A stretch of DNA of 64,000 bases from Psammoneis japonica (taxonomy: Eukaryota): positions 1-64,000 of the forward strand of contig QPGO01000280.1 of the NCBI GenBank assembly GCA_008632985.1. Reading direction: 5' to 3'. The position numbers and the translations under genes were made by a program. Shown here one piece after another: positions 22,310-64,000 of this stretch. Under the pieces are notes generated by a model that was given only the letters and a program-made list of their open reading frames with translations, searched no databases and was not told the DNA's origin. How positions within the stretch are numbered: position 1 is the stretch's first letter; each line of letters opens with the position of its first letter.

Positions 22310-22370
22310 TGTTTTCGGGGTTGTCCAATGCACTGACAGCCTTCAGCGTAACAGCAATCTATTGAGAGTT

Positions 22371-41700: not shown

Positions 41701-43826
41701 CAAGTCATGTCACCACGCGGAGGCGAGCTGACTCATGCTAGGGTCATTGCACGCAAACAAGACAGTGACGGGATTCCCATTGGTGCCAGGAACGACAACC
41801 CTGTCCCAGACTCGAGGATGTGCAATGTGGAATTTCCTGATGGATCCGCTGACTCCTGTGCTGCCAACGTAATTGCAGAGAACCCATTTGCTCAGATTGA
41901 CTCTGAAGGGAATGTCTGCCAGGTCATGAAGGAGACAGTCAATCACCGACATGATGCCCGTGCCACAATGGCCAATGATGGGTGCACAACGACTAAGACT
42001 GGCAGGCGTGCTCCTGGGAGGACGACCACAGGCTGGGACCTGCAAGTCAAATGGAAGGATGGGACTGCATCCTGAGTTCCTCTCAAGGATTTGAAGGAAT
42101 CCAATCCAGTCGAGGTTGCTGAGTGCACTGTGGCAAACAAAGCAGCTGGTGAACCAGCCTTTAACTGGTGGGTCCAAGACGTCTTGCGTTGCAGGTCAAG
42201 GATCCTGAAGAAAGTCAAGTCGCGCCACTGGAAATGTGTGCATGAGTTCGGAATTGAACTCCTGAAATCTGTCAAGGAAGCCATGGAGATGGATGACAGA
42301 ATGGGGACTGACTTCTGGTTCCAGGCTGTCGAGAAGGAAATGCGCAACGTCATGCCTGCACTCAAATTCCGTGATGACGACACTGCACCGGTCGGGTGCA
42401 AACATGTTGATTGTCACATGATTTTTGACATCAAGAGCACCCTCCAACGTAAAGCGAGGTTCGTGGCCGGAGGCCATCAAACCGATCCACCCAAGGAATC
42501 GACCCATTCTAGCGTGGTGTCACGTGACAGCGACAGGACAGCATTCACAACAGCAGCTCTGAATGACCTGGAGGTCCTGAGTGCTGATGTTCAGAATGCC
42601 TGCTTGAATGCGCACACTGAGGAAAAGTGATGCACCACTGCTGGCCTGGAATTTGGGAAGCAGAACGAGGGAAGGCCGGTGATCATTGTTCGTGCCTTGT
42701 GTGGTCTCAAGTCTTCAGGTGCAAGATTTAGGGAACACATGGCAGCTGCTCTGCGGGATGCTGGGTTTGAGTCTTGCAAGGCTGACCTGGATGTCTGGAT
42801 GCAAGCTGCGGTTAAGCCGGATGGCTTCAAGCACTGGGAACATGTGCTTGTCTGCGTGGATGACTTGCTGTGCATCTCCCATGAACCTCAGAAGGTCATG
42901 GATTGCATGAGCTCTGGGTGCACGCTCAAGGACGGAAGTGTCTGCGAGCCGGAAGAGCACTCAGGCGCCCAGATCAGAAAGTGCCAGCTGTCTGACTCGG
43001 ATGGTGAGACATGCTTGGCTGTGTCCTCTGACCATGTCAAAAGGGCATTGGCTGATGTTGAATCAGAGCTTAAGAAAACTGGTGGGCATCTTCCAACGAA
43101 GGCGTCAACGCCCTTGAGCTCGGGGTGCAGGCCTGAACTGGACGGTTCACCTGAGTTGAACGCCAAAACGGCTGACTGCTGCCAAGGCCTTGTTGGTGTG
43201 CTGCGATGGGCAGTTGAACTGGGGCGAGTGGACATTTTTGTTGCTGTCTCGCTCATGTCCTCCTGCTTGGTGGCACCACGAGTTGGACACCTGGACAAGG
43301 TGCTCCATGTCTTTGCATGCTTGAAGGCTCACTCCAAGCCTGTGCCAGTGTTCGACAACACTGAGCCCGTCTTTGACGAGAGTTGCTTTGCCAAGTGTGA
43401 TTGGGAAGAACATTGCCCTGGCGCGGCTGAACCAATGCCGCCGAACATGCCAGAGGCATGCAGGAATGGCATGACCACTGCTTGCTTTGTTGATGCTGAT
43501 CACACCGGATGCCGTGTGACACGCAGGTCCCACACTGGGATCCTGACATTTGTTCAATGAGCGCCCATCTTGTGTTGCTCCAAGCGGCAGAATGCCGTAG
43601 AGTCCTCTGCTTTTGGGTCGGAATTTGTGGCTATGAAGACTGCAGTGGAGCAAATTGAAGCCTTGCGTTGCAAGCTTCGGATGCTCAGAATCCCCATGGA
43701 TGGGGCCACTGACGGTTTCTGCGATGATGAGGCTGTCTTCAAGAACTCAACTAAACCAGAGTCCACTTTAAAGAAGAAGCACAATGCAGTTGCCTGTCAC
43801 AGGACTCGTGAGGCACAAGCCACTGC
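38733..43826 (+). pseudogene. pol: CoDi-2 gag-pol, multiply disrupted
   Basis: Same motifs as CoDi-1 (LDSHADTC, KARFVAGGH, VCVDDLL, FVDADHTG). Has an internal deletion near 41106. Confidence 0.9.
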
Positions 43827-44239
43827 TCAGAATGCTGTGCACTGCCCAATGAGTGCGGGAGGTTCTCAACAACCCAAGAGGCAAAGAAATTGCCACTCGG
43901 CTAATTGTTGAGTCCCTTCTCCGCACACACATTTAGGCATGTGTTGTGCACAGCATCATCACACAGCATTTGTCCAACTCTCCCTCTTGTTGCAGGATGG
44001 GGCATCGCCTTGGGGCGCATCCGCATGGTGGACTTACGAATTTGACCATGCACTCCCTCTGTCAGGCAGGCGGATGGGTTAGCGCCATGTGGCGCATCCG
44101 GCCAACACCAAGGGATGAGGAGTGGGTTCGAAGCCCAACCGCCCACCCCAGATGGGGTTGGAAAGGGGCAGGCCGAGAAAGAAAAGGAGGCTTGGATTTT
44201 GAGGCCGATTTGAACCAGCGACCTCAGGAAGCGTAAAGA

Positions 44240-45167
44240 CTCACAACCACTGCGGCATTGAAGGAAGGATGGACTGCACGTCAGGCAGACTACACCACAG
44301 CCTTCTGCCAAGCTGACATCGCCGAGGAAGTTTGTGTGACACCGCCGAAGGGTTTTGCGCCGAGGTCGGGACTCAATGTGGTTCTCAAACTTTTGAAAGG
44401 ACCACACAGCCTAAAACAGTCTCCCAAGGGCTTCTACGAGAACTTGCGAGCTGGTTTAACCGAGCGCGGATGGGTGCCTTCAACAACAGATCCCTGTTTG
44501 TATTTCAAAGAGGGTGTGATGTGTGTGGTGCACGTCGACGACACAGCATTTGCTGGAGCTTCAGCTGAAGCTCTAGAAGAAGAAATTCGCAAGTTGGGAG
44601 TCTCCGACAACAAACATCACCACGCATTTGAACTCAGAGACAAAGGAGAAGTCGGTGACTTTCTCGGTGTCAAGATCGAAAAGCTCTCTGAGGGTTGATT
44701 TCTACTCACTCAACCCGGTCTAATTGACAAGGTCCTGCGCACCGCACAGATGCAGGATTGCAATGGAGCATCTGCTCCAGCTCTACCTGCGGCCATTGGT
44801 GCCAACATGGATGGCCTGCCTTTTGATGAACCCTGCGATTGTCGCTCAGTTGTTGGAATGTTGATGTGCTTGGCAGCGAACAGCCGGCCAGACATTGCAC
44901 ATGCCACACATCAAGCAGCTCGATTTTCGTTTGCACCCCGAGCGTCCCACGCTGCTGCAGTGAAGCAGATGCTCCGACACCTCAAAGCCACTGCCACTGA
45001 AGGTCTCATTCTCAAGCCTGCGCAAGATCATCGAGTTGATTGTTACTTCGATTCTGACTTCGCGGGGTTGTTTGGTGTGGAAGATGGTCAAGACCCAGTT
45101 TCTGTCAAGTCCAGGACTGGACACCTCATCTGCTGCGCCGGCTGCCCGCTTGTCTGGGTGTCCAAGC
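44240..45167 (+). pseudogene. Inverted partial copy of the second Copia family's RT region
   Basis: Reverse complement of about 45878-46800 (ADYTTAFCQ, DPCLYF, HVDD, SRPDIA, FDSDFAG). Confidence 0.88.
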
Positions 45168-45169
45168 TG

Positions 45170-48100
45170 CAGTCGAGATGTGCTCCTGCAGCTGGTGGGA
45201 TGGACAAGACCTCGGAGGTTGGCAGCAATGTGAGTGGCAACAGAGGCAAACAGACGCTTGTTTCAAAGTCGTTGTCTAAAAATTGTGACGAAAGTCGTTG
45301 GTCTGTTTTGAATCGATTTTGTGATGAGCCATTTATTTCGAAGAGAAAATCTGAGTCTGGGTTGCAGTCATGAGATGCGACCAGAATGACGTTGAGTCGT
45401 GACTCTCCCTCTCAACCAAGAGAGCTCACCAGCCCATGAGAGCCTTTCCAGCCGCACGGAACGCATCGGTCCGCAGTCCCTTCGTGAACTGATCGGCCAG
45501 TTGCTCTAGAGTGCTGACAGGTTGGATGTCGATCTCCAATTGTTCGACTTTAGTCCTAAACCAATGGTGCAGGACACCGATGTGTTTGGTTCGCGGAGAC
45601 AACTTGGGCATGCATGTGAACTTGAGGCACGCGGAGTTATCTTCACACACAACGGATGCAGGTGGGACATTCTGCTCAACAGGCGAGTCATCGGTGCCTT
45701 GGTTTGCCAGCTCAAAAGCCTTGGAGTGAGTCGTGATGGGGTTTTGGTGGTCAGACTTTCCGAATGCGTGGTGGTTGCGCTCCTTGAGAACTTCACGAAT
45801 GGGGATGAGATCGCGCACAGCTTGAGAAAGTGCGACACATTCCGCTTCCATGGTCGACAATGCCACAAGAGTCTGTGGCTTGGACACCCAGACAAGCGGG
45901 CAGCCGGCGCAGCAGATGAGGTGTCCAGTCCTGGACTTGACAGAAACTGGGTCTTGACCATCTTCCACACCAAATGACCCCGCGAAGTCAGAATCGACGT
46001 GACAATCAACTCGATGATCTTGCGTGGGCTTGAGAATGAGACCTTCAGTGGCAGTGGCTTTGAGGCATCAGAGCATCCGCTTCACTGCAGCAGCGTGGGA
46101 CACTCGGGGTGCAAACAAAAACCGAGCTGCTTGATGTGTGGCACATGCAATGTCTGGCCGGCTGTTTGCTGCCAAGTGCATCAACATTCCAACAACTGAG
46201 CGACAATCGCAGGGTTCATCAAAAGGCAGGCCGTCCGTGTCAGCACCAATGGCCGCAGGTAGAGCTGGAGCAGATGCTCCATTGCAATCCTGCATCTGTG
46301 CGGTGCGCAGGACCTTGTCAATTAGACCGGGTTGAGTGAGTAGAAATCGACCCTTGGAGAGCTTTTTGATCTTGACACCGAGAAAGTTGCCGACTTCTCC
46401 TTCGTCTCTGAGTTCAAATGCGTGGCGATGTTCGTCGTCGGAGACTCCTAACTTGCGAATTTCTTCTTCTAGAGCTTCAGCTGAAGCTCCAGCAAATGCT
46501 GTGTCGTCGACGTGCACCACACACATCATGCCCTCTTTGAAATACAAACAGGGATCCATTGTTGAAGGCACCCATCCGCGCTTGGTTAAACCAGCTCGCA
46601 ACTTCTCGTAGAAGCCCTTGGGAGACTGTTTTAGGCCGCACAGTCCTTTCAAAAGTTTGAGAACCATGTTGAGTCCCGACCTCGGTGCAAAACCCTTTGG
46701 CGGTGTCACACAAACTTCCTCAACGACATCAGCTTGGCAGAAGGCTGTGGTGCAGTCTGCCTGACGTGCAGTCCATCCTTCCTTCAATGCCGCAGTGAGC
46801 ATGAGTCGGACACTGGACCATTGCACGACCGGCGTGCAGGTTTCAAAACAATCGACTCCTTCTTTCTGTAAATCACCGCGGATGCAGTGTCGGGCCTTGT
46901 GCTTGAGAGGGGTTCCATCTGGGAGTCTCTTGAGCTTAAGTGCCCATGTGCTTTGAAGTGCATTCACATGCGGCTGACGTTCGACTGCTTTCCAGGCTTG
47001 ACGATGTGTGAGTGCGTTGACCTCAATTTTCATCGCCTCAATCCATTCGTCGGCGTCCGGACCTTTCAGAGCATTGTGTGACGAAGGCATGTCAGGGTCC
47101 TTGGTTTTCTCACTAGCCACGCAGGCTCGTGGATCGCCGACATTGATGGTGCCACTGTCCAAATCCGTCTCAAGAGTCGCCAGATGAGCTGGTTGAGCCT
47201 CGTGTCCAATCGGCAGTGGCATTTCCTTGATGGAGCTGAAGCAGACTTCATCTGCAAACTTGGCAGAGTTGAACTGTCCCTTGGTTGACCTTGAAGACCG
47301 TCGCAGCCCTGATGCTCCCTCTGGATTTGTCATGGGAGGTGTCTCGACTGGGGAGGAGCTGTTGGTTCCGTCGGCGCTTCGGGTGGTGGAAGTTTGTCAC
47401 TGTCTTGAGGTTCAGGTGGCTGAATTGGTGCAGAGTCCATAGAGTCTGTAGGAGCTTGAGTCGCAGGTGGGACTGGTGGCATTGGCTGTTGAATCGCAGG
47501 TGCGACTCGATCGGCAACGTCGTCACGAGAAGTGGGTGAATCCCGTGCAGTGATCAATGGAGTGGGCTCAAAATGGCCGCGAACACGTGTTGCTCTGGCC
47601 AGTTCTCGCTCTTTACATTGACACTCTGGAGGGGCAAGCCACTCATCGTGCAAATGGACTGATTGATCCTTCTCCAGAGGGATGCACATTGATTGGTTGA
47701 GACATGAGTGTTCCCAGTGACCAGGTGGATCTGTCTCCCTCTCGATTGATGGTGCGGTGGTGAAGAGATTGTCAAAGACCACATGATGCTGAGGAGCAAC
47801 ACTTCCAGTTTGTAGATTGAGGACCAAAGGAACCTCACTGGAATGGATGGCACTGAGTCCCACGAACAAAGCGCGACGAGTGCGAGGTTCCCAACGTGGG
47901 AGTTTCTTTCCGGAAGTGAGGGTTGGATCAAGTGCGTGCGCTGGACATCCCCATGTGTGAATGTCTCGCAACCAATGTCTTGGCACTGTCGAACTGGTGA
48001 AAATGTCCGCTGGGCAATGTCCCTTGGAATTTGGGGTGACATTGCAGATGTGCGTGGCACAAGAAACAGCCATGGGCCACAGGGAGCTGTCAATCCCTCC

Positions 48101-48178
48101 CTTCCTGTGAATGGATGCATGAAGCAACATCGCTCTCGCCATGTTGGAGATGCTTCGGATGCCCCGCTCTGCGACGCC
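45170..48178 (-). mobile_element. 5'-truncated Ty1/Copia of a second family (integrase C-terminus, RT, RNase H, PPT, probable partial 3' LTR)
   Basis: LWPMAV..WGCPAH..KLPRW; KHKARHCIRGDLQKEGVDCFET; HVDD; VALSTMEAEC; CEDN; RTKHI; QLADQFTK. PPT gagagggagag at 45403-45413 on the minus strand. Confidence 0.88.
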
Positions 48179-48556
48179 CTGGAATGGTGCACATTGCTTG
48201 GGAAGACGGACGCACGAATTTAGCGGATGTGCTGGCCAAGTTGTTGCCTGGACCGAAGCTCCAGGAAATCATAAGTCATGTCCCATGGTGAGTCCCAAAA
48301 GGGGACAAACCGAATGGGTTTGCCGCGCAGGTGCGGCTTTTCCCACCCCCAAAATGAAAATGCTGCCCTGGAATGGGGCAGCATCAGGTTGCATTTGTTT
48401 GTTGATCTGGCCCCGAGCGGAGCTGGCGTCAGTTCGAGGGGACTGAACAAATGCTGATGTGCTGTCACGAACACAGGCAGTTTATGCACTGTTGGCGATT
48501 GGTCCACTGTTGCTTGTTTGGCGGCCCCGGCAGCACAACATCTCACAATTCTAGAA

Positions 48557-49200
48557 CCTGTTGATGCTGTTCAACACTCTGTCTTGTCTTACACCCAATT
48601 CTTGGCCATCATGGCAGCATTTGTTCATCAGCAATGACCCCCACTTGTTCACACTTGAGGAGTTCACTGACCATTTTCTTGGTCCTGAGTGTGCAGCATC
48701 CCTCTCCATGGGTGCAGTGCCATCTGCTCCCACTCCTGGCTTGTTGCCACCAAAACCACGTTACCCCGTGCATGACTTTAAACAAGGAATCAAACATGAT
48801 CCACTTGCCTTTGTGATTCTCAAGTCAGACAAACAGCAGCACACATGGCACACCTCTGTTGTTGCACAGGCCCGCTCCCAGGACATTGACCGCATTCTCA
48901 ATCCAACACACAAGCCCTGTTGATGCTGTTCAACACTCTGTCTTGTCTCACACCCAATTCTTGGCCATCATGGCAGCATTTGTTCATCAGCAATGACCCC
49001 CACTTGTTCACACTTGAGGAGTTCACTGACCATTTTCTTGGTCCTGAGTGTGCAGCATCCCTCTCCATGGGTGCAGTGCCATCTGCTCCCACTCCTGGCT
49101 TGTTGCCACCAAAACCACATGACCCCGTGCATGACTTTAAATGAGGAATCAAACATGATCCACTTGCCTTCATGACTCTCAAGTCAGACAAACAGCAGCA
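48557..49200 (+). repeat. Tandem duplication (359-bp period) of an LTR end plus a gag-like fragment of another Copia family
   Basis: 48557-48841 matches 48916-49200. Peptide DFKQGIKHD..LKSDKQ..W..AQARSQD. Confidence 0.85.
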
Positions 49201-49993
49201 AATTGAAGCCTTGCGTTGCAAGCTTCGGATGCTCGGAATCCCCATGGATGGGGCCACTGACGTTTTCTGCGACAATGAGGCTGTCTTCAAGAACTCAACT
49301 AAACCAGAGTTCACTTCAAAGAAGAAGCACAATGCAATTGCCTGTCACAGGACTCGTGAGGCACAAGCCGCTGGAATGGTGCACATTGCTTGGGAAGATG
49401 GACGCACGAATTTAGCGGACGCACTGACTGAGTTGTTGCCTGGACCGAAGCTCCGGGAAATCACAAGTCATGTCCCATGGGGTGAGTCCCAAAAGGGGAC
49501 AAACCGAACGGGTTTGCCGTGCAGGTGCGGCTTTTCCCACCCCCAAAATGAAAATGCTGCCCTGGAACAGGGCAGCATCAGGTTGCATTTGTCTGTCGAT
49601 CTGGCCCGAGCGGAGCCAGTGTCAGTTCGAGGGGACTGAACAAATGCTGATGTGCTGTCACGAATGTGGGCAGTTCATGCACTGTTGGCGATTGGTCCAC
49701 TGTCGCTCATTTGGTGGCCCCGGCAGCGCAACATCTCACAATTCTAGAACCTGTTGATGCTGTTCAACACTCTGTCTTGTCTTGCACCCAATTCTCAGCT
49801 GTCATGGCAGCATTTGTTCAGGGGGTTTCGAACCCCTGGCCTTCTGCCTGATGGTTGCTCAATGAACCACTCTGCTGTGAATTCACAACGCAGCATGCAT
49901 GCAGACAAAAGGTCATTTTTGTCACAACCTTTGTGACTTTTAAAGGCTGCAACACGTCGCCGTGATGCGTTGGCTCTCATGAGCAGCTGGACA

Positions 49994-50867
49994 TTGCAAG
50001 TGTCCAAACAAGACGAGGCGGTCTTCAAGAAAGAACTGCAACACCTCTGCAACATTGGCGCATTGGAGCCAGTGGGACCGACGGAATGGGCAGCAGGAAC
50101 CTTCACAACACCCAAGAAGGACGGTCAAGTCAGGTGGGCATCCGACTTTCAAGATTTGAACAAAGTCCTCAAGTGAAAAGTTTGTCCTCCACCCATCATG
50201 CAAGATGCACCACACTGACGATCAGGGTGCAAGTTTTTGACCAAGTTGGACCTCACCATGTTTTGCTGTCACATCGAATTGGACGATGAGTTGAAGGACC
50301 TTTGCACAATTGTCACCCCATTTGGGGAGTTCCAACATTGCAGACCAGCCATGGGGCTGAAAACTTTGCCGGATGTTGCTCAAGCCATCATTGAAAAAGT
50401 GGCAAACGAACTTGATGTGGAGTCCTGCATTGATGACATTGCTCAATTTGATGATTTGTTTGATGCTCACATGTGTCGACTTGACAAGTTGTTGTCCAGG
50501 CTGGAGGAAAATGATCTCAAGGTCAATCCACTCAAGTGCAAGTGGTGCATCCAGGAGATGGATTTAAAAGTTGATGCAGTGTTGTGGATGCAACCTCCTC
50601 AGAACGTGACACAACTGTGATCTTTTGTCAGTGCAGTGACCTGCTGTCAAAACATGTGGCCCTGTTGCTCTCATGCACTCACTCCACTCACTAAATTGAC
50701 CAGCAAGAGTAAATTGGAATGGACCCCAGAGTGTCAGAAGGCTTTTGAAGATGTGAAGACTTTGACAATGGATGACACCCTTTGGGTCTGTCCAAATCAT
50801 GACAAACCCTTCCACATTTGTGCCGACTCCTCCGATCATCAAATGGGCACCATGATCATGCAAGATG
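49994..50867 (+). pseudogene. pol: Gypsy pol, part 2 (RT and start of RNase H)
   Basis: VFKKEL..EWAAGTFTTPKKDGQVRWASDF..LNK; KLDL; TIVTPFG; MGL; CIDD; KVNPLKC; PFHICADSSDHQMG. Confidence 0.88.
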
Positions 50868-50974
50868 AAAACAAAACCCAATGTCTGTGTTTTAAGTGCT
50901 GCCACGCTTCCACCCTGCAACTCCGGCAACAAGCTAACCCACACTCCCAGTGCACAATGTGCGGCAGGAGCGCA

Positions 50975-53900
50975 TGACAATTGGCCATCATCGGCATTGC
51001 CGGAAGGCGATGCCGACCCGAAGCAGCCAGCAACAGAGCGTGTGCCTCGCACGGCAAGCCGCTCAGCTTCCCGTAGATTAGACTTGAACATGGGCTTTGC
51101 CACAGCCAACCAATTTCGCATCCGATGGGTGGAATGGGTCAAATGCTCTTCAACCGAATCAAGCAGTTGGTGCTTGTCTCTTGCTGAGTGCTCATCCGCC
51201 CTGGAATGTGTTTCTTGGACTTCAGCCTCCGTGTCACGGCGTTGAGCAGATTTCTTTGTTTCAGAATCGTGTCCATGCACGGCATCATTGTGCATGTCCC
51301 ACAATTCCCACCACTGTGACCAGATGTAACTGCCAACAGTCGCCGCCCAATCAAGACGTTTCTCCCTGTTGGACAAAGCATGACACACACCTGTGGCTAG
51401 CAGGTGCAACCGCTGGGCCACATTCCACAAAGTGGAAAACCTGCCACTAAAAACGTGTTGCCATCCAATGCTTTCTTGGGACCGAAAAGTTGCATGTGTG
51501 CTGCAATGAAATTCCTCAATGTGTGGCATTTCTTCACGAAACCACCCTTCTGGAGAACCCAGGAGCATGTCCCGCAAAGCCGGGGAGGCATTTGTGTCAT
51601 CGCATTTCTTTTGAAGACCTTGAAGAAATTTGCGTCTCCACACCTCATCATGAGGGCAACAAAGGATGTGATTGCGGTCCTCCATCGGATGTTGACAATG
51701 GATGCAACAGTTGAGACGAGCAGGGTTGCACCTGTGCACAATTTTGTTTGTTGGAAGGAGATCTTGGACTAATTTGACGGTGCTCACCTTGTGCCGGATG
51801 TTCCTCGACATCAGTTTTGAATGCACTTGCCAATCGATTGACTGAAACACAGTGTCGGACCACCCACACTTCTCTTTCATGTGTTGCATAAGAGCTGGAC
51901 TGGATGCCTCACACCAAAGGATGGTCTTGAAGTTTGAAGTCAAGGCACCCGCTGGAATGTCAAGCAATGCGGAGCAATTGGGCATGCGGGGCACAATGGA
52001 GGTGTCACCATCACACTGGCCTTGAAATCCGGTGGCTAGTGTGTCTGCTCGAATGTTCAATTTAGCGGGGAGAGACAAGTGTTGACACGGAATGGTGTCG
52101 TCTTGGTGCCCTTTCACCCAGGAAAGCATCGCTGGTGTGCCCTGCACGCCTTCACTCTGTGTGCCTTGCAATTGTTGCAAAGAAATGAAAATTTCATGAA
52201 TGACATCCCAACCAGGAGCCAGGGTGTTGGAAATGTGGTGCCTCAGGCGAAAGTCCCGTTCACGGTGAGTCTCATCCGCATCGTTGGGGTGTGGGGGCAG
52301 TGCCTTGAAGTTCTGAACGTTGCGGACCAAGGAAGAGTTGTTGCAGTGACACTCTGTCCCAAGTGGAAAGGTCCGATTGCAAAATTTCATAACACAAAGA
52401 AGGAACCGCACCACTGAAAGGTGGCCATGAGCCTCTGTGCGATGCAAGGAAGGACAAAATCCAAAGACTGGGCCTGCACAATCCACCAGAAAAACTCCAC
52501 CGATGGACAACGTCCAGCCAAAGGTGCCATTGTGCTGCACCACCGAGCCATCACTGCCGACCATTGCACGAGAGTTAGCCAATGTTTCCACCAGTTCAAA
52601 CACCAACACGTGCAGTGTCAAGTCTTGAAACAGGGCCGATTCCCATTTAGGTAAAGAACGGACCCAAGCAACAAATTCACCTGGGATGGGGAGACTCGGA
52701 GGAATGGATGCTTTAGAGAATGATGATTGAAGACGCCACTTTCCATCGTCGGCGGTGTCAACCAAAACGGGAGATGCCAAAGGTGACAAGTCCGGAACAG
52801 TCTCCAGGTGCCTCAAAGATTCTGCGCATCTGTCTCGGACGGGGTGTGCATTGCATCCGATGTCAGACCGGATGTACAAAAACTGTTCGCTCGGTTCAAA
52901 GTGAGCCAGGAATTGCACGCGCATGTCGGCAGCAGTGACAATCCATTGTCCTGATGGATGTTTCAGCAAAGAAGTGTCATCCTTGCAAAACATGGCACAT
53001 GCTCAACGCCACTGCTTCCAAGCTCTGGGAGATGGAGACGGCTGTTCCACTGGGTTGTTCAATAAAAAACTGCTGAGGAGGGATCGATCACCTGCCAATT
53101 TAAATTCATCAATGGACAGACTGTCTGGAAGAGCAATGTCAGAAACCGTGAGCACGTTGAGATGCAATTGACAGCAATTGATCCAGCAGATCTCTTTGTC
53201 GGAGAATTCACCAGACTCGAGCACAACATCCATGATGCACTGATCGTTGTCCCGCTGAAGGGGCAACACACCCGCATCGTCCAAGTCGAGAGAGGCATCA
53301 ATCTGAGCCAGAAAAGATTGCAGAGACATGAACCATTTAGATTCAGAATGAGGCAGTTTGGAATGGACATCCACTAAAAAGCTGATGCCAGTGCCCAATT
53401 GAAACTGCATCCAAGCCACCGTAACACGTGACAAAACATGAGGTTGACCCCTGCTGCGCCAGTGCCGAACAAACTGCGTGCATTTGGACATGCCTTGTTC
53501 CACATCTAATGACCGAAAACCGCCTCCACCAAGAGTGTGCGGACCAAACAGCACGTCTCGTTTTGTGTTTCGGTTGTGCCCGCTCTTTGCAAAAATCGTC
53601 CGCATCGCTTTCCGCTGAACCTCCAACAATTCCTTTGGCAAGAAGTGAGCATTCGGGAGATTGTAAGACACAGACGACAAGCAGCAGGCGAAGCAATGCG
53701 TCCAAGCTTTGTGTCCATCAAGAGGACACGCTCTAAGGAACAAGGCAATGTCATCACTCTTCCTCTTTAACGCCAAACATTGCATTTTCTGAGCACCAGC
53801 AGGAGACTTGTAATGCCCCAAGGTCTTGTGAGATGAGCAAGCTGAAAGCTGGGTGCTGGACCTCTTGGCAGCACGGTCGGCGGAGAAAATTTCAATGTCA

Positions 53901-56748
53901 ATTTTGTTGTTAAAGGGGTGCAAGCAAGGTTCGCCATCCTCCATAAAAATCCACTCGATGGCATGAAATGAGCATTTGGGAAGCTCAAGTTCGTGGCCAG
54001 CAGCATTGAGAAGGTCACACCACATTTGGTTGTCTTCCTGCATTTTTGGAACCAGGTCCACAGCGGACGGCTGAGGGGAGGCACAAAAGTCATTGACTTG
54101 CTTCAAGGTGTCATCCACGTGTCCTCAGATGAACAGTTTGAGGGACTGTTGTCAGTTGGGAGATTCGAAATGGGCGCCGTGAGCTTTCTCATCGAACAGC
54201 CAGAACAGACTGTTGCACATTTGATTCCAGTAGAATGGGGAATTGCCACTGCCCTGTCCCGTGCCATAGATTGGGAACTCAGAAGAGTGAGAGCATGAGG
54301 TCGCAGACAGGCCAAGAACCGTCTTTGGCCAATGCCCGGCGCCCTCCAAGGTAGCGTCAGCGGACTGTGTGATCTGCTTGGGCATGCCGTTGCTTCTGCT
54401 CTCCAGTGCCATTAAAGCAGGGACATTTCTGTCACAACAAGAAGTGCAGTCATCATCACTGTGAATGGCAGTCTTCCTCAACACTCTGCTGATTTCCAGC
54501 ATTAACTCCTCGAGGTAAACAGGAGTGTTGGCATTCAAGAATGGTCTTGTGCCGTAAACACCTGGATTGCACAGACGCTGATGCTCCATGTTCTGAGCAA
54601 GGGACTGCCATTTCACACTGGAAATGAGCTGAAAATCGGCCTCATGTGTGTGGATGACGCGAAGTCGGTGAATTTTGGCATTGCCAGGTTCCTTGAAGAT
54701 CATGACATCAACGATGTCTTTCCAATGATCATGCGAGTACCCCCAGTGCAGGGCACAATTGAGCAAGTTCAAACGGATTTGAATCAAGGTGCGTTGGACC
54801 TTGTCCAATGAAGCACATTCCGGAGCAGGTTCGCCATCGGCAGTTTGGGAATGAGAGTGAGCGTGGGAAGTGCACATTGCTTTCCAATGACCCAGATGAA
54901 GGCCTGAGAAAAGCGACGTTGATGTGGATGCTTTCCATGGCTTAATCTTGCCTTCCAAATCCTGAGCCATTAAGAACTGTGACACAGACACTGGAGAACG
55001 GCATTGCAAATGAGTGACAAAGCATGACGCAGCTTCATTGAGCGCAGACGTGTCATGCTCTCTGTCCAGAATAAGATCCGCCACAATTGTGTCCCCTGAT
55101 CAACCTGAGTCCACAGACAGAGGGGGAACAGTGGGAGGCGTCCCATCAGCTTGCCCAAAATGTTTCTGATTCCGTGTGCACAGTGCCGAAGCTGCTTCAT
55201 CCAGAGCATCAACAGCAATCCAGTCCATGCATTCCTTTGGAGGGATCGCCGGATTCCGTGGAACTTGAACACTGTTGATCCCAGTGTCACGTTGAGCTCC
55301 GCACGACTTGATCTTCTGGAACAGCTTGGTGGTCTCTGCTGCCTTGCGAAGGTTACGTAGAACAATCGCCTTTTTACGAGAAGCTGCAGCACTCTCCATT
55401 TCTAGCCAAGCAATCTTGTCGGCAATTTCATTGTCTCGATGCTTGACGCTCTCAGCCGCGACCTGTCTACACTCATTCTGCGCTTGTCGTAAAGCTTGTT
55501 GACACTCTTCAAAGGCAGACGGGATCATGAATTTGCCACTCAGGCTGGTGCGGACATTTTGAATCTGAGCCGCATGATCAATGCGGGTCCGCATCATGGA
55601 CAACACACGGGATAAGACACACACTCGACAACGTAAATCCGCCAACTGAGTCGACCACTCCGGTTCTCGGTGAAGGCGACACTTCTTTGCCACTGCTAAA
55701 GAAAACTGTGACAGATCCCCATCCAGCCTTTCTGCCAATTCATGATCAGGAGTGATGGACTCCAAGAGTGAAGCAGACCTCTCCAAAACGTTCCGACTCT
55801 CTAGCATGGGATTGATGGTTTGTAGGCAGGTGGCAACTTGAGGTTTCGAAGACGCTTGTAAGTCTCGAAAGGCTGTGCCTTCGGAAGATCAACAGTCGGG
55901 TTGCCAAAAAAAGCAATGGCATCAAAGTCCACGAAGTTAGCGCGATGATCCGAAGCAATGCGGTGTCCAAATGCTTCACAGCCACCAAATCGTGCAGCGG
56001 CCAAAGCACCAGGGGCAGCTGAAACGAAATCCAAGCGTTTTGACCCCCTTGTGCAAGTAGAAAATGCCGTGTTGCCTGTGAGAGAAAACATTGCATCGGA
56101 GAGATTGAACCATTGGGCCAAAGTGGACAGAGAGTCGGTGTCAACAACGAAGTCCGTGTTAAAGTCCCCGAACAAAATAACCTCACGGTTGGAATCTGCA
56201 AGAAACTCTTGCAACAAACGAGACAGATCAGTGCAAAATGCTTTGCGAGGGTCAAGGTGTTGGCGGCCTTGCTGACGCAAAAGATGAAGCTGCTGAGCGT
56301 GTGCTGTTGTTTTCCCAGGCCGTGTTTGATTTTTGGCACAAACTCTGCAGCAGGAAATGAACATGACTTGTCTGCCATTTCTGCCATCAAATGTCTGGAT
56401 AGACCAACGGCCTAACGGATCAGCCTCCTGAGAATGGCAGCGAGCAGACACCGCATTGCATGACAACAAAGCCGTGCCACCAGGTTTGTGTTGTGTAGAG
56501 AAAGGAGTTGAGCTGCAGGAAAAGGCACCTCTGCCGTGATGGAGGGAGTTTGTCACTGCAGAACGGCAAACCGACAAAACCGAATGTTGAGCAGTGTCCA
56601 AACAAACTTCCGATGTGCCCACAATGTCAGCCTGCATCTCGTTTGTGATCTGACAGCACACAGCGAAGTCTCCTCCACGTTTGTCAAACTTGCTGCTGTT
56701 TGCATTGAAGGCGTGCAGTCTGGTGTGGTGTGAGAGCTTGGGCCCCAC
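50975..56748 (-). pseudogene. LINE ORF2: AP endonuclease, RT, RNase H and C-terminal Cys/His motif; several stops
   Basis: APE GDFN, RLDFV, SDHR; RT IHRLRVIH, GTGQGSGNSP, GHVDDT, KTLG; RNase H SDGS, RTEAHG, WVKGHQD, NIRADTLA; CIHC..H..C. Confidence 0.88.
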
Positions 56749-57117
56749 AGAGTCGCCAACGGAAACGTTTGTCTTCAGGCGGGAAAAATCGATGCATCAT
56801 CTGGCAGAGGATTGAAACCGCCTGCCATCCAAGAGAGTCTGCCATGTGGAAGAAGATGTGTCTGTTGAAACGGCACTGCTCATGGTTGGGCCACGCTCCT
56901 CCGAAGAGAAGACTGGGGCTCACAGCACTGCCAGCAGGTTGAACCGAAGAATGAGGACACGGATGATTTGCAGATCTTGAAAGAAGGTTAAAGGTCCCAT
57001 GACGGGAAGTCCGACGAAAAACATGAGAGAGAGCAGGCGGAGCAGATGCTCGGGAAAGGATGTCAGGAGGGCACCTTAATGTTTGAGGGGGTGGAGACGG
57101 CGAGATCCAACCCCTGG

Positions 57118-58885
57118 CTAAAAATCCTGCCCTTGGTCCGTTTGATCGTAGGAACATTCTGGAGTTTCCATGTGGTTGTGTTGTTTCTGAGCTGGAGGTG
57201 AAGCATGTTGAGATGTTTGGAGCATGGTGACCATCTGATTCATTTTGTCTTGCATGCTGGAAAACTGTTTGGTGTTGGCATCTTGCAACGCTGCCATGTC
57301 ATTGGCATGCTGTTTTGAAAATGCACCGTGCAATGCGTCAATCTCCTTTGAGTGTTGAGCACAAAGTTCCACTGAGGCTTGATCAGTCTTGGCCTGCATT
57401 TGATTCAGCTGCTGTTGAACTTCAGCCATCTGAGCAGACGTTAGAGACGAACTTGCAGATGACTGAGCAGCTTGAGCGCAAGAACAGGAAGGAGACTGCA
57501 TGCCAGGATGTCCTTGCATCCCGCACGAACACCCGAGAGGTTGTAAGGAGGATGGAGCGCACTCGTTCGACTGGGTAAAAACAGGTGGAGGAACGGCAGA
57601 ACCTTGAGGAGTTCCGCAACCAGGCATGCCACCACGACCGGCCCCTCTGCCAGCAGACGGACGATTCAAGTGCGAAGGATCAGATTGGGGAGCTTGGGTG
57701 TCGGTTAACGGGGATGCATCCGAGAAAGTCAGTGATTCAAGGCTGCAAATGCTGGCTGACACAATGGACTTGCTGGCATCGGATTGCTCTTTGAACACTC
57801 CAGACACTTGGGGATGATCCGGAAAGGGAGGAGAAGTCCATGATTCTTCTGGAATGTTTGGAATTTCATCCACAACACATGTAGAGACAGTGGCATGGGC
57901 AGCTTTGAACTCGGCTCGTTTGACCAAAATGTTGTAGCGTCCGGAGATGGTGTTTGTCGTGTGAATTGCCTTGACTCCTTTGATGGCTTTAATGTGATTT
58001 TCGAATTAAAACATCATGTCAGAATTCGTGTGCAGCAATGGAACCACACATGTGTCTTGATTGCGGTGGGCCTGAATTTTTGCAGCATTGTAAAAGGCAA
58101 GAGGAGACAAGCAACGAGTCTTGGCCAGGACAATGTGAGTCAGGAGCTTGTTGGAAGCACACAAAAGGGCTTTTCCTGCAGTGCGGTAATCGCCGAGCTG
58201 CACTTCAACAGCACAGGTCACTGCACGAATCGGAGGAGCCAAATGGTCATTGTCCACATGAACAGCAGTCGGAATCAAAAAAAAAGAACTCGCCAAGATC
58301 CTTCGCAAACAATTTGGCAGCTTCTTCAACAGGTGCATGCTTGGATGGAGTTGCAACACAGTGTGCCGGAGTGGCCGCATCAATGACAGATTCATTCCAA
58401 CAGTGACGTTTCATGCCCACATTGTTCAAGTCAAGAACAGATTGAATGTGAGGGTGAGCACGAATTTCCTTAAGAGGCACCCCAGCCAGGATGCGATGAC
58501 AAAGTCGATGAGTGACGGGACGTTTTTTGCCGCTACGAGTCGTTGAGACCACAAAGTGACGTTCATGCTGGAGGGAAGAAATCCACTCGGCCACGTTGAC
58601 ATTCGTAATTTGGTTGTTGTGGTTGTCAAAAATCCTTGCATCAGATTGGCATGTAAACAGAATCTGTTGTAGAGCTTGGAGGTGAGCCGCAGTGAGGGTC
58701 ATGGGTTTGCACGACGCCTCCGGGCCACGAATGTCAAAACGGAGAGTGATCTCCTTGAATTGTTGTTCTTTCGGCTTGGAAGAAACCTTGGTGGATGCAT
58801 GATCAACGGTGACATCATCCGCCATGGTGTTGTCATTGTTCTTGGGAGGGGCATGGCTGCCGTCAGCAACGGAAGAAGACGCCAT
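57118..58885 (-). pseudogene. LINE ORF1 (frameshifted), with a coiled-coil/Gln-rich C-terminus
   Basis: ORFs 58247-58927 and 57118-57927 lie upstream of ORF2, inside the TSD. Confidence 0.65.
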
Positions 58886-58964
58886 GGTGGGTCGGAAGTT
58901 CTGCGGAGAGCCTGGCATTGAAAACATGCAGGTAAAATCAATGCTGACATTCGCAGAATTGTGC

Positions 58965-60474
58965 GATCATGCAAGATGGAAAGCCAGCAGTGCATTGGTT
59001 GTGGAAGCTCAGTGCAGTGCAGCACAATTGCTCAACCATTGAGAAGAAACTTCTCGTGGTGGCAATGTGTTTCAAAGAATTTCATTCCATGTTGCTTGGA
59101 GCGGATTGCACTGTTTTCACTGATCATAAAAATCTCACCTTTTGCACGCTCAACTCTCAACGAGTGCTCAGGTGGAGAGTCTTTTTGGAGGATTTTACCC
59201 CAACCTTTGAGCATGTTGATGGCAAGAACAACCTGTCAGCAGATTGTTTTTTGTGATTGCCACGCATGGATCCACCAATGGAAGGGAAGTGTGCTCCAAA
59301 CAAAGGCAAACTGACAGATTTCAAAGCAATCGACACTGCCACGCTGCCTCATGAAGAGGAGCTCAACAACATGGATCGCGCATCTTGTTTTGCTTGCTGT
59401 CGGGAAGAGCCATCTCAGTTTCATTCCTCCTTTGTTGATGATCCGGAGCTGTGTGAATCATTCTTGAACTGCCCCTCACTTGATGAAATGCAAAACCCAA
59501 CAACTGTGCAACAGATTCAGGAGCATCAATTTGTTGATGTGGAGCTGAACAACATGAGACAACAATGCCCGGAACAATTCGTGATTGAACATGTGAACCA
59601 GCATCCTGTCATTTGCTGTTGTGCTCATCCCAATGCTCTTGCAACAGAGTGGAAAATTTGTGTCCCCACTGTTTTGTTACCTGATGTGATCCACTGGCAT
59701 CACAGGACATTGGGGCATGCAGGAATGCACCGCATGCACTCAACTGTTGGCGCGCATTTTTGTCATCCTGTCCTTTGTTGGATTTGTGAGGAATTTCGTT
59801 GTGCTGAGTGTCAACACTTAGAAACTTTGGGTCCGGGACATGGAGAACTGCCTGAATGCAAAGCGTCCTTGCTGCCATGGAATGAAGTTGCAGTCGACCT
59901 CATTGGTCCCTGGAAGATTGACACTCAGGGCCAGGAGATTGAACTCAACACTTTGACTTGCATTGACGCTGTTTTGAATGTTGCTGAGCTTGTTTGCATC
60001 AACAACAAAACCTCCAAGCATGTTCCCCAGCAATTTGAAAATTGTTGGTTGTCTCATCATCCTCTTCCCAACCGTTGTGTTCATGACAATGGCGGAGAAT
60101 TCATTGGAGAACACTTTCAACTGTTGTTGCAGCAGGCGGGAGTGGAGGATGTGCCCGCCACGTCCAGGAGCCCACAAGCCAATGCGGTGTGTGAACATGT
60201 GCATCAAACTGCTGGCAATGTCTTGCATGCTTTGCCTCACCTTTGCCCTCCACAGAACATTGGGCAAGCCAACCAACTGGTGGATGATGCTTTGGCAATG
60301 ACAATGCACGCAATGCGGTGTGCAGTGTCCCGAGCTCTCAAGGTCTCACCTGGTGCTGTGGTGCTTCATTGTGACATGACACAAGATCTGCCAGTGCTGG
60401 CAGATCTCGCCGCCATTCAAGAACATCGACAAGCAATTGTTGGTGCAAATCTCCACAGAGCAAATGCCAAATGA
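58965..60474 (+). pseudogene. pol: Gypsy pol, part 3 (RNase H remainder and integrase)
   Basis: [31 protein letters not shown]...GHAG..C..C; EVAVDLIGPW; HDNGGEF; PQANAVCE. Confidence 0.9.
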
Positions 60475-60739
60475 CGCTCCTGCGATTTTCAAGTTGGCAG
60501 CCAAGTGCTTGTCAAGACTGTTGGTCCCACCAAGCTTGCACCTTGAGTGCATGGTCCTTGTCCCATTGTTCAATGGCTTCATGTGGTGGAGCAACTTGAC
60601 GTTTGGCATGTCGCACCACATCGAGTTTGAGGCCAAGGGTTTTTTCCCAACTCTTGGTCTTCCCTTGTTTCCTCTCATAAAATTTGAATTAGAATTTTAA
60701 AATTTTTGAGTCCCAAATGACTCTCATGATTCGAGTCAT

Positions 60740-60751
60740 GGAAGGGAAGAG
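60740..60751 (+). promoter_or_regulatory. Probable Gypsy polypurine tract; a 3' LTR would start TG at 60752
   Basis: ggaagggaagag|tgcaat downstream of the integrase. No matching 5' LTR found in the window. Confidence 0.5.
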
Positions 60752-61102
60752 TGCAATGTCACGCACCCCATTTTTCTGATGTGTGGTGTCAATGATCCTG
60801 CCAGACACAAGAGGAGCCATTGTGATGGGCTTCGCTGAAAGCAACCTCATCACCTTGGTCTCTCTCTCACAACTTTGTTGTCACTCAAGTCTTTGTCTTG
60901 TTGGACCTTGCAGATCGAAGAGTGGAAATGCATGTTTTTGAGAACGGCAATTTTGTTTGTGCAGTCATTTGGGGATCAAACCTCACCCAATCGGACACAA
61001 TCGCCAATTCAAAAATTGAAACACCAAAGGTGGTGCTTGCTGAAATGGGCACATTGAAACACCATGTGTGGCGCTTGTTTCCGATTGGCGTTGAGCGAAG
61101 TC

Positions 61103-61950
61103 AGGCTTGGTCTGCAGGTGAGCCGAGCTGGATCGGATCACTGGATCGACTCCTTCACAACCCAATGAAGTGTCAGTCCATCGAGTCAAAAAGTCGATCC
61201 GTGGCCTTCGTGGAACTGATCCGCCATCTCGGATCAGACGGTCTTCGAAGCAAAATGTTTTGCTCCGAAGACCGTCCGATCCGAAAATCCAGATTGGACG
61301 TCGGATCCAATTTGGAGGGTTCCATGCCACCATCACGACAATGGCACAACATCACATGATTGTGACACAGAATGGCATGAGATTCAGCCATGAGGGCAAG
61401 GAACATTCTTGGCATTGTGGTCGAAGTCTTTCCATGCTCAAAATGAAGATGAGAAAGGTGGTGTGGCAACAGAGCAGCTTGTCAAACTGACAATGCGATG
61501 CAGATTTGTTGGAGAAACATTGAACAAGCAAAGTGACAAGCACCTGTCATGTGACTCGAAGTTTCAATGCGAAAACATTGCACTGGTTTCCCAGCTGCAA
61601 AAGTGACAGCTTTTTCTTCCTCAGCATTGCTGTGGACATTGAGTGACAACGATTCTCAATGATGCGGTCACATGTGCATGCAAAGCTGCGGCAACAGCAT
61701 GGCTCTGTTGTCATGTCATTGCGTTGTGACAAGATGTGAAGCATCATGGCCACACTTCTTGTTGTTCGCTGTTGTCAGTGCTTTGTCATTCTTGGGAGTT
61801 TGGAATCTTGAAACTTGTGTCGTTTTGCGACTCATCAAAATGTCAAATCCGATCCGCGATCCGATCCGGTTCCACCTGTCGACTAACGGAATTCTGACGC
61901 GATCCGATCCGTTGATCCGATCCGGCGCGGTTCACCTGCAGACCGAGCCT
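61103..61950. mobile_element. MITE-like element with ~46-bp imperfect TIRs, GGATC-rich subterminal repeats and an internal 56-bp palindrome
   Basis: aggcttggtctgcaggtgagccgagctggatcggatcactggatcg versus the reverse complement aggctcggtctgcaggtgaaccgcgccggatcggatcaacggatcg. No clear TSD. Confidence 0.68.
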
Positions 61951-62130
61951 CATTCTTCTGAAGTTACCGTACTGAATGACGAAGAGGAAAGTCAACATTT
62001 TCCAAATAACAACAGTTTTATCCAAGAAATGTGTGATTGAATATAAAATAATAATGAAATAAGAATAATACTTGAGTTGAATAGAGAAAATACAAGGACA
62101 AAAAATTTTGTCCTGCGGGTACAGAGAAAG

Positions 62131-64000
62131 TTAACAGTCCGGAAATGGACTCGAGTTTGGAGTAAATCTGGGAGCGTTAACACATGTGGCTGGGGTCGAA
62201 GATGGTCCGTAGCTTGCTGAACTACTGCAATCGAAGGTTCCACCTGTGGTAGTTGTGCAGCAAAGGGTGTTATCAGTGCCATTGCATCTGCCCACAGTAC
62301 CATCAATGATGTCCTGACACACAGGGAGGTTTTCAATAACATTATCTGATATGACACAATATGTAGTGGGTGTGTCTGGGAGGGGACCATTGCCATCAGT
62401 GCCAAGGCATGAGTTGCCACAACTGGTGGAGCACGTTGTAGTGGAGACTGCTCCAAACTGATTCGAAACGCAATTGCTGCTAGCGGGGCAACATTTCGAT
62501 TGCTGGCTCGAAGTGCCAGTGAGTGCCAAGTAGGCTAGATCGCAAAAATCATCTCTTGCACTTGTGCAGCCAGGATCAACTTGAGAAACGAGAGTAGTCA
62601 ACGGGTCCGTGACAGGGTCCGTCTCGTCGCTATCGGCCGTGCCCACGTTCACGATCACGCCAGCTTCGACATCAGCCTGGGTGACCGTGTATGCCGTAGT
62701 CAGCACGCAGGGGTCACCTACTGCAACGGTAGCGCAAGTAGTGCTGCCACCCGTCAAGTCGTCGCTCACCACCACATTCGTCAGGGTGACGTCTCCATTG
62801 TTCGTCGCCGTAATGTTGTAAGTTAGAGTGTCGCCGAGACTCACGTCTTCCGAAAGGTCCTCGTCGGCATTACTCAGCAGTGTCTTGACTACAACCAACT
62901 GCGGGTTTTGCGCAACGGGAGTAGTCAACGGGTCCGTGACAGGGTCCGTCTCGTCGCTATCGGCCGTGCCCACGTTCAGGATCACGCCAGCTTCGACATC
63001 AGCCGGGGTCACCGTGTATGTCGTAGTTAGCACGCAGGGGTCACCTACTGCAACGGTAGCGCAAGTAGTGCTGCCACCGGTCAAGTCGTCGCTCACCACC
63101 ACATTCGTCAGGGTGACGTCTCCATTGTTCGTCGCCGTAATGGTGTAAGTTAGAGTGTCGCCGAGACTCACGTCGCCCGAGCCGTCCTGGTCGGCATTAC
63201 TCAGCAGTGTCTTGACTACAACCAACTGCGGGTTTTGCGCAACGGGAGTAGTCAACGGGTCCGTGACAGGGTCCGTCTCGTCGCTATCGGCCGTGCCCAC
63301 GTTCACGATCACGCCAGCTTCGACATCAGCCGGGGCGACCGTGTATGTCGTAGTTAGCACGCAGGGGTCACCTACTGCAACGGTAGCGCAAGTAGTGCTG
63401 CCACCCGTCAAGTCGTCGCTCACCACCACATTCGTCAGGGTGACGTCTCCATTGTTCGTCGCCGTAATGGTGTAAGTTAGAGTGTCGCCGAGACTCACGT
63501 CGCCCGAGCCGTCCTGGTCGGCATTACTCAGCAGAGTCTTGACTACAACCAACTGCGGGTTTTGCGTAACGGGAGTAGTCAACGGGTCCGTGACAGGGTC
63601 CGTCTCGTCGCTATCGGCCGCGCCCACATTCACGATCACGCCAGCTTCGACATCAGCCGGGGTGACCGTGTATGTCGTTGTTAGCACGCAGGGGTCACCT
63701 ACTCCAACGGTAGCGCAGGTAGTGCTGCCACCCGTCAAGTCGTCGCTCACCACCACATTCGTCAAGGTGACGTCTCCATTGTTCGTCGCCGTAATGGTGT
63801 AAGTTAGAGTGTCGCCGAGACTCACGTCGCCCGAGCCGTCCTGGTCGGCATTACTCAGCAGAGTCTTGACTACAACCAACTGCGGGTTTTGCGTAACGGG
63901 AGTAGTCAACGGGTCCGTGACAGGGTCCGTCTCGTCGCTATCGGCCGTGCCCACGTTCACGATCACGCCAGCTTCGACATCCGCCGGGGTGACCGTGTAT
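62131..64000 (-). CDS. Intact host gene (3' part; 5' end beyond the window): probable secreted/surface protein with tandem 109-aa DUF11/DUF7507-like Ig-fold repeats and a Cys-rich C-terminus
   Basis: Open frame to the window edge. Repeat LVVVKT..DQDGSGDVSLGDTLTYTITATNNGDVTLTNVVVSDDL..YTVT.ADVEAG.I.N...A. Normal Tyr and TpA usage. Confidence 0.85.
   Translation of the reverse strand, partial: YTVTPADVEAGVIVNVGTADSDETDPVTDPLTTPVTQNPQLVVVKTLLSNADQDGSGDVSLGDTLTYTITATNNGDVTLTNVVVSDDLTGGSTTCATVGVGDPCVLTTTYTVTPADVEAGVIVNVGAADSDETDPVTDPLTTPVTQNPQLVVVKTLLSNADQDGSGDVSLGDTLTYTITATNNGDVTLTNVVVSDDLTGGSTTCATVAVGDPCVLTTTYTVAPADVEAGVIVNVGTADSDETDPVTDPLTTPVAQNPQLVVVKTLLSNADQDGSGDVSLGDTLTYTITATNNGDVTLTNVVVSDDLTGGSTTCATVAVGDPCVLTTTYTVTPADVEAGVILNVGTADSDETDPVTDPLTTPVAQNPQLVVVKTLLSNADEDLSEDVSLGDTLTYNITATNNGDVTLTNVVVSDDLTGGSTTCATVAVGDPCVLTTAYTVTQADVEAGVIVNVGTADSDETDPVTDPLTTLVSQVDPGCTSARDDFCDLAYLALTGTSSQQSKCCPASSNCVSNQFGAVSTTTCSTSCGNSCLGTDGNGPLPDTPTTYCVISDNVIENLPVCQDIIDGTVGRCNGTDNTLCCTTTTGGTFDCSSSASYGPSSTPATCVNAPRFTPNSSPFPDC
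62588..64000. repeat. Near-identical 327-bp coding tandem repeat, more than 4 copies
   Basis: Equivalent positions at 62828, 63155, 63482 and 63809. Confidence 0.95.

Follow-up and report, generated by a model that had tools for sequence, protein, structure and literature searches.

Mutational defences that act on cytosine, such as fungal repeat-induced point mutation (RIP) and the APOBEC enzymes, are well worked out, whereas a chromosomal counterpart acting on adenine or thymine has only been proposed, from one mutation-accumulation study. In that study, on lines of Bigelowiella natans, an integrated giant virus and a virophage gained 231 single-nucleotide mutations, 230 of them A-to-G or T-to-C, at a rate about 1000 times background and in some lines only; the authors place all GC-biased changes on TpA, and the giant-virus insert is single-copy (10.64898/2026.01.13.699255). 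The same preprint reports 124 clusters of TpA-poor, CpA+TpG-rich 1-kb windows in the B. natans genome (cut-offs: a Rho_TpA of at most 0.43, with a Rho_CpA+TpG of at least 1.52), finds domains of transposable elements (TEs) enriched among TpA-poor coding sequences, and proposes an ADAT2-like adenine deaminase. Our literature search found the signature in print only in this preprint. Here we analyse 64,000 nt of Psammoneis japonica DNA (assembly GCA_008632985.1, contig QPGO01000280.1, positions 1 to 64,000, hereafter the window). Nearly all of it is a TpA-depleted, CpA/TpG-enriched domain of nested, degraded transposons, which ends at a small element with terminal inverted repeats (TIRs) beside a gene for a DUF7507/DUF11 repeat protein that keeps its TpA (Table 1).

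The window resembles B. natans, as that system is set out in the preprint, in four respects: A:T-to-G:C transitions only, at TpA and on both strands; TpA-poor, CpA/TpG-rich blocks (here with a TpA observed/expected ratio, o/e, of 0.10 and CA/TG at about 1.3–2.2 per bin); confinement to foreign or mobile DNA (here at one junction, with gene and flank at TpA o/e 0.58–0.93); and enrichment of TE domains in such blocks. In that study the process is independent of copy number. The two cases differ in extent, because depletion here is near-complete over at least 62 kb of transposons, whereas the viral insert there still has a Rho of 0.45. The main text of the preprint is also without the words 'boundar' and 'tandem', and we saw no analysis of long terminal repeat (LTR) pairs or of sequence context in it.

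The other described systems are further removed. RIP is likewise an in-place transition hypermutation of transposons with fairly tight limits at repeat ends. It is triggered by duplication above certain thresholds, tandem duplication included, and its C-to-T changes, which fall mostly on CpA and turn it into TpA, raise the TpA content; here, by contrast, TpA has an o/e of 0.10 with CA/TG at about 1.6, and an array of 4.3 tandem copies of 327 bp is spared, with no column reading CA in one copy and TG in the other (a CA:TG column) and a transition-to-transversion count of 14:18. The window departs from the RIP class on both counts: TpA is erased instead of raised, and the tandem array is unmutated. 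The ADAR and APOBEC enzymes of animals also mutate selfish nucleic acids by deamination, and ADAR prefers a U before the A; their substrates are RNA or single-stranded replication intermediates, in which they leave strand-coordinated clusters, whereas the changes here arose after integration, affect both strands and show no clustering by strand. In dinoflagellates, TEs and integrated viruses are enriched in 5-hydroxymethyluracil (5hmU), which, according to earlier studies cited in the same article, replaces T preferentially in TA and TC (PMC11572971). The likeness lies in a base modification directed at TEs and integrated viruses; if T were modified at TpA and mispaired with G, TA would become CA. 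That article reports a silencing mark, however, and not a mutational footprint.

The TpA-poor domain and its edge

The contrast between the two parts of the window is stark. Positions 1–61,880 contain 375 TpA (o/e 0.10, 6.1 per kb), against 87 (o/e 0.79, 41 per kb) in 61,881–64,000. When the window is cut into 500-nt bins, there are 0–9 TpA per bin over 1–62,000, with an o/e of 0.00–0.30 in 124 of 124 bins, and then 27, 16, 22 and 19 in the last four; CA/TG values in the TpA-poor part are mostly 1.5–2.0. One TpA-free gap, between 60,698 and 61,884, measures 1,185 nt (P = 2.7e-22 under the gene-side rate), in agreement with the initial annotation, which had described TpA as essentially absent from 61,320–61,840. 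Fitted to the whole window, the maximum-likelihood single change-point for TpA is 61,965 (2-log-likelihood (lnL) support interval 61,856–61,970; lnL gain 88); the 848-bp TIR element ends on the right at 61,950, 15 nt before this point. Left and right of that end there are 1 and 7 TpA within 100 nt, 1 and 15 within 200 nt, and 1 and 28 within 500 nt, so that the sharp TpA boundary claimed in the initial annotation, near the right TIR of this element, holds. When the change-point test was repeated for all 16 dinucleotides over 54,000–64,000, TpA alone switched at the TE end; CpG, AA, GT, GA, AT and TG switch at about 62,525–62,600, at the start of the GC-rich coding repeats.

The element at the edge (arms at 61,103–61,148 and 61,905–61,950) has the features of a miniature inverted-repeat transposable element (MITE): TIRs, a length below 1 kb, no coding capacity and many copies. 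It contains a single TpA, at 61,884. Its copies were assessed by comparing the 2,001-nt stretch 60,600–62,600 with k-mer depths and contigs of run X1; depth in the element rises to 1,875, and TE-side bins range from hundreds to that value, against 26–33 in the unique flanks. Next to none of the stretch is represented in runs X2 and X3. At 61,553, 61,597, 61,810 and 61,817 the window has TG and other copies in X1 have TA, and at 61,584-5 and 61,787-8 those copies show the opposite choice of CA or TG. The copy in the window therefore holds TpA-type changes of its own up to at least 61,817; among the variants listed between copies, none falls in 61,819–61,950. The edge thus lies within about 150 nt, roughly one nucleosome, which is compatible with the exact end of the element and not resolved to it. 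No matching flanks that could represent a target-site duplication were seen by eye, the left flank being mutated TE DNA.

Three further observations concern this element. Around 61,540–61,600, contig ends from X1 and X2 that do not align at 90% represent TA-rich relatives of the TIR element in the same sample, and a 30-nt X2 consensus from this interval has, by eye, five TpA at places that are CA or TG in the window. Within the element, 61,229–61,284 form a near-perfect 27-nt palindrome whose arms are 93% complementary and separated by a 2-nt spacer. CpG was tried as a proxy for a methylation boundary and set aside, given its change-point of 62,589 and a CpG o/e of 0.83–0.98 in the TIR element, which is not CpG-poor.

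We considered an assembly chimera in which a bacterial DUF11-type gene had become attached to TE DNA of a eukaryote. Most DUF7507/DUF11 proteins come from bacteria, the best source-named matches of this gene are all bacterial or archaeal, its GC content is 0.59 against about 0.49, and the longest X1 record has 315,122 letters. An X1 contig nevertheless covers 61,923–62,600 without a difference (record 8; 699 nt, depth 26.4 versus 30–33 on the TE side), starting 28 nt inside the TIR, just below the 31-letter bridging rule, and the TE-side X1 contigs (records 1–3, depths 30.2, 33.1 and 43.4) match the window exactly. X1 is possibly the window's own assembly sample and hence not independent, although it excludes a scaffolding error. 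The best protein identity for the gene in a large protein collection is 71%, and the flank next to the edge is AT-rich (GC 0.39). Ten of the 30 relatives of the gene's C-terminal part were looked up; they lie mostly on short contigs, and the sole named one is a weak match (E = 5.6e-4) to a protein from a eukaryotic transcriptome. Contamination or a chimera at the junction is unlikely, and a chimera of this bacterial kind we consider very improbable.

TpA loss by mutation in place

Two Copia-like elements in the domain, copies 1 and 2, are 88% identical over 4,757 aligned columns in a self-comparison of the window, and their differences record how TpA was lost. Transitions make up 503 of the 552 mismatches, and 246 of the mismatches sit in 123 CA:TG columns; no other type of adjacent double mismatch exceeds five occurrences in either of two alignments. 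CA:TG columns are expected when an ancestral TA has been hit on opposite strands in the two copies, and they therefore indicate mutation. A further 25 columns have TA in one copy only (TA:x) and 10 have it in both. If strand choice is random, so that discordant columns account for one half of all positions at which both copies mutated, the ancestral sequence contained about 281 TpA, or 5.9% of dinucleotides, which is an ordinary content. Retention is about 8% per lineage, equal to 2.5 events per site. Sites outside TA, CA, TG and CG columns show 0.027 changes per site, and the per-site rate ratio of TpA to non-YR sites is at least 95, a historical estimate and, given the saturation of the process, a minimum. 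Taken together, the normal ancestral content and the discordant columns indicate that nearly all of the loss occurred independently in each copy.

The LTRs of single elements, which are presumed identical at integration, have diverged in the same way. The copy 1 pair has 28 mismatches in 184 nt (26 of them transitions), with eight CA:TG and two TA:TG columns; the copy 2 pair has 18 mismatches in 184 nt, all transitions, with five CA:TG and three TA:x columns. That each pair stems from a single insertion is taken from the structure of the elements and from a 4-nt match between the flanks of copy 1. Discordant LTRs within one element mean that mutation followed integration, and editing of an RNA intermediate cannot yield them. 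This result bears directly on pre-integration editing, in which an ADAR-like enzyme would convert A to I on double-stranded TE RNA before reverse transcription and the edge of the domain would be an insertion edge. The preference of ADARs for U before the edited A (quoted in 10.64898/2026.01.13.699255) and the abundance of retroelements, which are most of the elements here, speak for such a route. It is already contradicted by the eight and five CA:TG columns between LTRs, however, and further by the independence of nearly all TpA loss in the two Copia copies, by the depletion of the DNA-type TIR element and by outcomes that are not clustered by strand (84 runs versus 83.5 expected). We regard editing before integration as highly improbable.

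The damage extends to coding sequence. The best-preserved reverse-transcriptase (RT) frame, from another Copia-type insertion, was aligned with nine metagenome relatives at 49–60% identity; no relative in the protein collection exceeded 60%. Nine columns are Tyr in 70% or more of these relatives; the frame retains Tyr in none of them, reading six Cys, two His and one Trp, whereas other residue classes are 55–100% kept. Tyr amounts to 0.14–0.45% of five long TE frames, versus 12 of 622 residues in the adjacent gene. Related Copia loci in metagenomes have a TpA o/e of 0.41–0.92 in 80 of 80 cases; none of the 80 was free of TpA, in a search whose peptide patterns favour intact copies. The depletion is an in-place mutational process and not a matter of composition.

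A base-calling artefact at modified bases, or selection against TpA in place of mutation, would have to account for the same data. The ground for suspecting an artefact is that long-read callers might in principle misread T or A where TpA is heavily modified. But the k-mer contigs of X1 (records 1–3; the platform of X1 is not on record) repeat the TpA-free sequence with no differences, coding frames are destroyed as mutation predicts, and paralogous copies show opposite outcomes at the same site, which neither artefact nor selection would lead one to expect. Either explanation is improbable in the extreme.

The alignments also describe the process itself. Successive discordant sites are independent: 173 discordant sites of the Copia copies form 84 runs, against 83.5 +/- 6.2 expected, and the runs test over these sites revealed no strand-coordinated clusters. 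Among surviving TpA (strands pooled), T is preceded by A in 6.8%, by G in 20%, by C in 28% and by another T in 45%, and ATAT survives 0 times and TTAA 82 times. This suggests a context preference of ATA > GTA > CTA > TTA, an indicative ranking given that the denominators include native CA and TG. As a separate observation, copy 1 reads CA and copy 2 TG at 105 of the 173 sites and the reverse at 68, although the copies share an orientation; the split is about 2.8 standard deviations from even. With high confidence, then, the window displays a site-specific, two-strand, post-integration and non-clustered change of TA to CA or TG, on the TE side only.

Several points weigh against this account of a TpA-specific process that acts in place and stops at the TE end. 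The boundary evidence comes from one junction, the sole one within the window. CpG has its change-point at 62,589 and not at the TE end, and ordinary CpG decay is present as a second process, with 147 CG:TG or CG:CA columns between the Copia copies. The 30-nt X2 consensus, which represents a TA-rich relative of the TIR element, has T for the window's C at three non-TpA sites and A for G at one. An element at 21,734–22,760 and 26,331–27,364 consists of split direct repeats in the order A-B ... B-A (576 nt at 97.7% and 454 nt at 95.2% identity), with an interior CpG o/e of about 1.0–1.1 in several bins and a TpA o/e of only 0.07–0.28; its repeats have just nine CA:TG and five TA:x columns in 1,030 nt. 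Judged from these figures, it seems to have been TpA-poor already when copied, so that depletion would be partly inherited and not produced in place; it may also reflect TE lineages that adapt by shedding TpA. Finally, the window fits TpA hypermutation of the B. natans type, as known from the preprint, on every sequence criterion tested, but the identity is one of signature. With these points counted, we keep strong confidence that the process is real, specific to TpA, acted in place and is restricted to the TE side.

The spared gene and the targeting of the process

Beyond the edge lies the 3' part of a gene whose product matches DUF7507 (E = 7.8e-65, 215.9 bits against a cut-off of 27, in four stretches) and DUF11 (E = 5.7e-20, 72.2 bits against a cut-off of 24.6). 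According to the initial annotation, its near-identical 327-bp repeats keep TpA, CpG and Tyr, and they do: the array has a TpA o/e of 0.93 and a CpG o/e of 1.14–1.27, and the whole 622-aa frame has 12 Tyr. An offset self-alignment of the array yields 32 mismatches, 14 transitions and 18 transversions, with no CA:TG and two TA:CA columns. The unique coding part has a TpA o/e of 0.58. Between the stop codon and the TIR element, the unique AT-rich flank is a probable 3' untranslated region; across 61,881–62,130 there are 15 TpA in 250 nt (o/e 0.67, GC 0.39). We do not take these values as a sign of mutation leaking into the gene: the 0.67 and 0.58 near the edge may be due to composition, and just two TA:CA columns separate the repeats.

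The initial annotation had further argued that selection or concerted evolution in the gene would not account for the TA-rich non-coding 3' flank. Within the frame, a T-to-C or A-to-G change that leaves the protein as it is could remove 59 of the 72 TpA; among those removable, 42 straddle two codons and in 16 the T is the second base of its codon. Because these synonymous exits went unused and the non-coding flank keeps its TpA as well, protein-level selection cannot explain the sparing.

What, then, directs the process? A 1.4-kb array at 97% identity that carries no mark means that tandem duplication alone is not the trigger. The broader proposal of the initial annotation, that the trigger is not simple repeat homology as in RIP but a chromatin or methylation state confined to TE DNA, survives in part: the spared tandem array, a single case, agrees with its first half, CpG as the one sequence proxy for methylation lends the second half no support, and recognition of dispersed repeats would also stop at the end of the TE. 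A homology-triggered mutation, with the logic of RIP and a different chemistry, could recognise dispersed repeats by DNA pairing or by small RNAs. In its favour, the TE side of 60,600–62,600 is multi-copy (depth to 1,875) and the spared flank unique (26–33), the change-point coincides with the end of a multi-copy element, and everything that could be checked inside the domain is multi-copy. The sparing of the array counts against it, although the small-RNA version escapes that objection. So does the hypermutated giant-virus insert of B. natans, which is single-copy in the preprint's account and counts only if the two are the same system. We think a homology trigger of this kind unlikely, though less so than the other alternatives considered. 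A trigger other than homology has, in our estimate, an even chance of being correct. The data, read at the level of sequence, exclude tandem duplication as sufficient; a chromatin state and small-RNA or dispersed-repeat homology are not separated by them.

We propose the following model. The domain is a transposon graveyard nearly saturated by TpA-specific hypermutation, and the window ends at the graveyard's edge. Each TpA was changed at its T or its A (TA to CA or TA to TG), singly, on either strand and after integration. The process is aimed at mobile or foreign DNA and stops at most about 150 nt from the end of the last element, whereby the unique 3' flank and the adjacent gene, tandem repeats included, retain normal TpA. 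Targeting would be by a silencing mark or a guide and not by mere duplication. As to chemistry, an ADAT2/TadA-like deaminase may turn the adenine of 5'-TA to inosine on DNA; alternatively, thymine may be modified so as to pair as C. What makes deamination of adenine in 5'-TA attractive is that A34, the target of tRNA adenosine deaminases, follows the conserved U33. 5hmU, for its part, can mispair with G. TpA is its own complement, so that sequence cannot separate deamination of A from modification of T, and we regard deaminase chemistry as a toss-up. A wider picture can be offered tentatively, and we would sooner doubt than accept it in full: TpA-specific DNA editing that extends beyond one alga, is directed at mobile DNA with a precision of about one nucleosome, follows a mark or guide in preference to duplication, acts on single TpA in duplex DNA with graded context, and drives TE lineages to shed TpA.

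Some observations on the gene and its flank stand apart from these questions. The C-terminal 157 aa (62,131–62,604, minus strand) are Cys-rich and match no Pfam family; they have 30 relatives at E <= 1e-3, usually C-terminal in proteins of 120–390 aa on short environmental contigs, and an atlas search with this domain gave no usable match. By its sequence, this looks like an undescribed domain fused to bacterial-type DUF7507 repeats. On the minus strand, 18 nt downstream of the stop codon, there is a short AT-rich hairpin at 62,096–62,113 with a stem of 8 bp and a loop of 2 nt, and the bin 62,074–62,140 has a k-mer depth of 656 versus 26–45 nearby, which means that some short piece of it recurs in the sample.

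Contents of the domain and meaning of the finding

Table 1. Positions of the domain, its elements, the edge and the adjacent gene in the window
Feature	Position	Strand	Remarks
TpA-depleted, CpA/TpG-enriched domain of nested degraded transposons	1–61,950		Continues beyond the window's left end
Copia-like LTR element, copy 1	9,153–16,301	+	LTRs 9,153–9,336 and 16,112–16,295
Copia-like element, copy 2	33,063–49,826	+	LTRs 33,063–33,246 and 49,637–49,820; split by nested insertions
Best-preserved RT frame, another Copia-type insertion	46,071–47,396	-	RVT_2, E = 4.1e-34
LINE-like (long interspersed nuclear element) run of open frames with endonuclease domain	50,567–56,796	-	Exo_endo_phos in 55,804–56,796
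TIR element, MITE-like, non-coding, 848 bp, last of the domain	61,103–61,950		46-nt TIRs, 87% complementary
Interval holding the domain boundary	61,818–61,965		Last site shown to be mutated 61,817–61,818; first TpA kept outside the element 61,965
Unique AT-rich 3' flank of the gene, 180 nt	61,951–62,130	-	Between stop codon (62,131) and TIR end
DUF7507/DUF11 repeat-protein gene, 3' part	62,131–63,999	-	622-aa open frame; 5' end beyond the window
Tandem coding repeats	62,587–64,000	-	Period 327 bp, 4.3 copies, 97% matches

The domain is made up of several kinds of element (Table 1). The 184-nt Copia LTRs have TG...CA termini, with a purine tract 5' of the 3' LTR. The flanks of copy 1 share 4 nt (AAGG), a possible target-site duplication, whereas those of copy 2, which contains nested insertions at about 33,986–38,660 and 43,825–49,197, are without a clean match. 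A Pfam scan of 43 frames, from which an open frame overlapping the TIR element (60,826–61,356) was left out, gave a TE-type match in 7 and no match whatever in 34. Two domain matches in the TpA-poor region exceed the curated cut-off, RVT_2 (118.7 bits) and, on the minus strand, Exo_endo_phos (E = 2.1e-07, 31.4 bits against 24.5); rve, Plavaka, SH3_retrovirus (retroviral SH3-like) and RVT_2 in two more frames fall below it. Scans of the whole window with Rfam at its gathering threshold and for tRNAs returned 0 matches each.

Thirty of the 31 stop-to-stop frames of at least 250 aa lie inside the domain (1–61,950), most of them without a family match. Long spurious open frames are to be expected there, because the stop codons TAA and TAG need TpA. 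This carries a practical warning, since gene callers would annotate the spurious frames of TpA-poor regions as proteins.

Beyond what had been proposed for a defence of this kind, the window adds action in place, near-saturation (about 90% of TpA erased over tens of kilobases) and a ranking of contexts, together with the independence of neighbouring sites, the absence of clusters by strand and an edge that falls no more than about 150 nt from the TE end. The context preference is a property that any candidate enzyme must reproduce. A reach that ends at a transposon's edge, beside a gene with tandem repeats that were ignored, narrows the possible targeting signals, and the junction offers a concrete place at which maps of methylation, chromatin or small RNAs could identify that signal.

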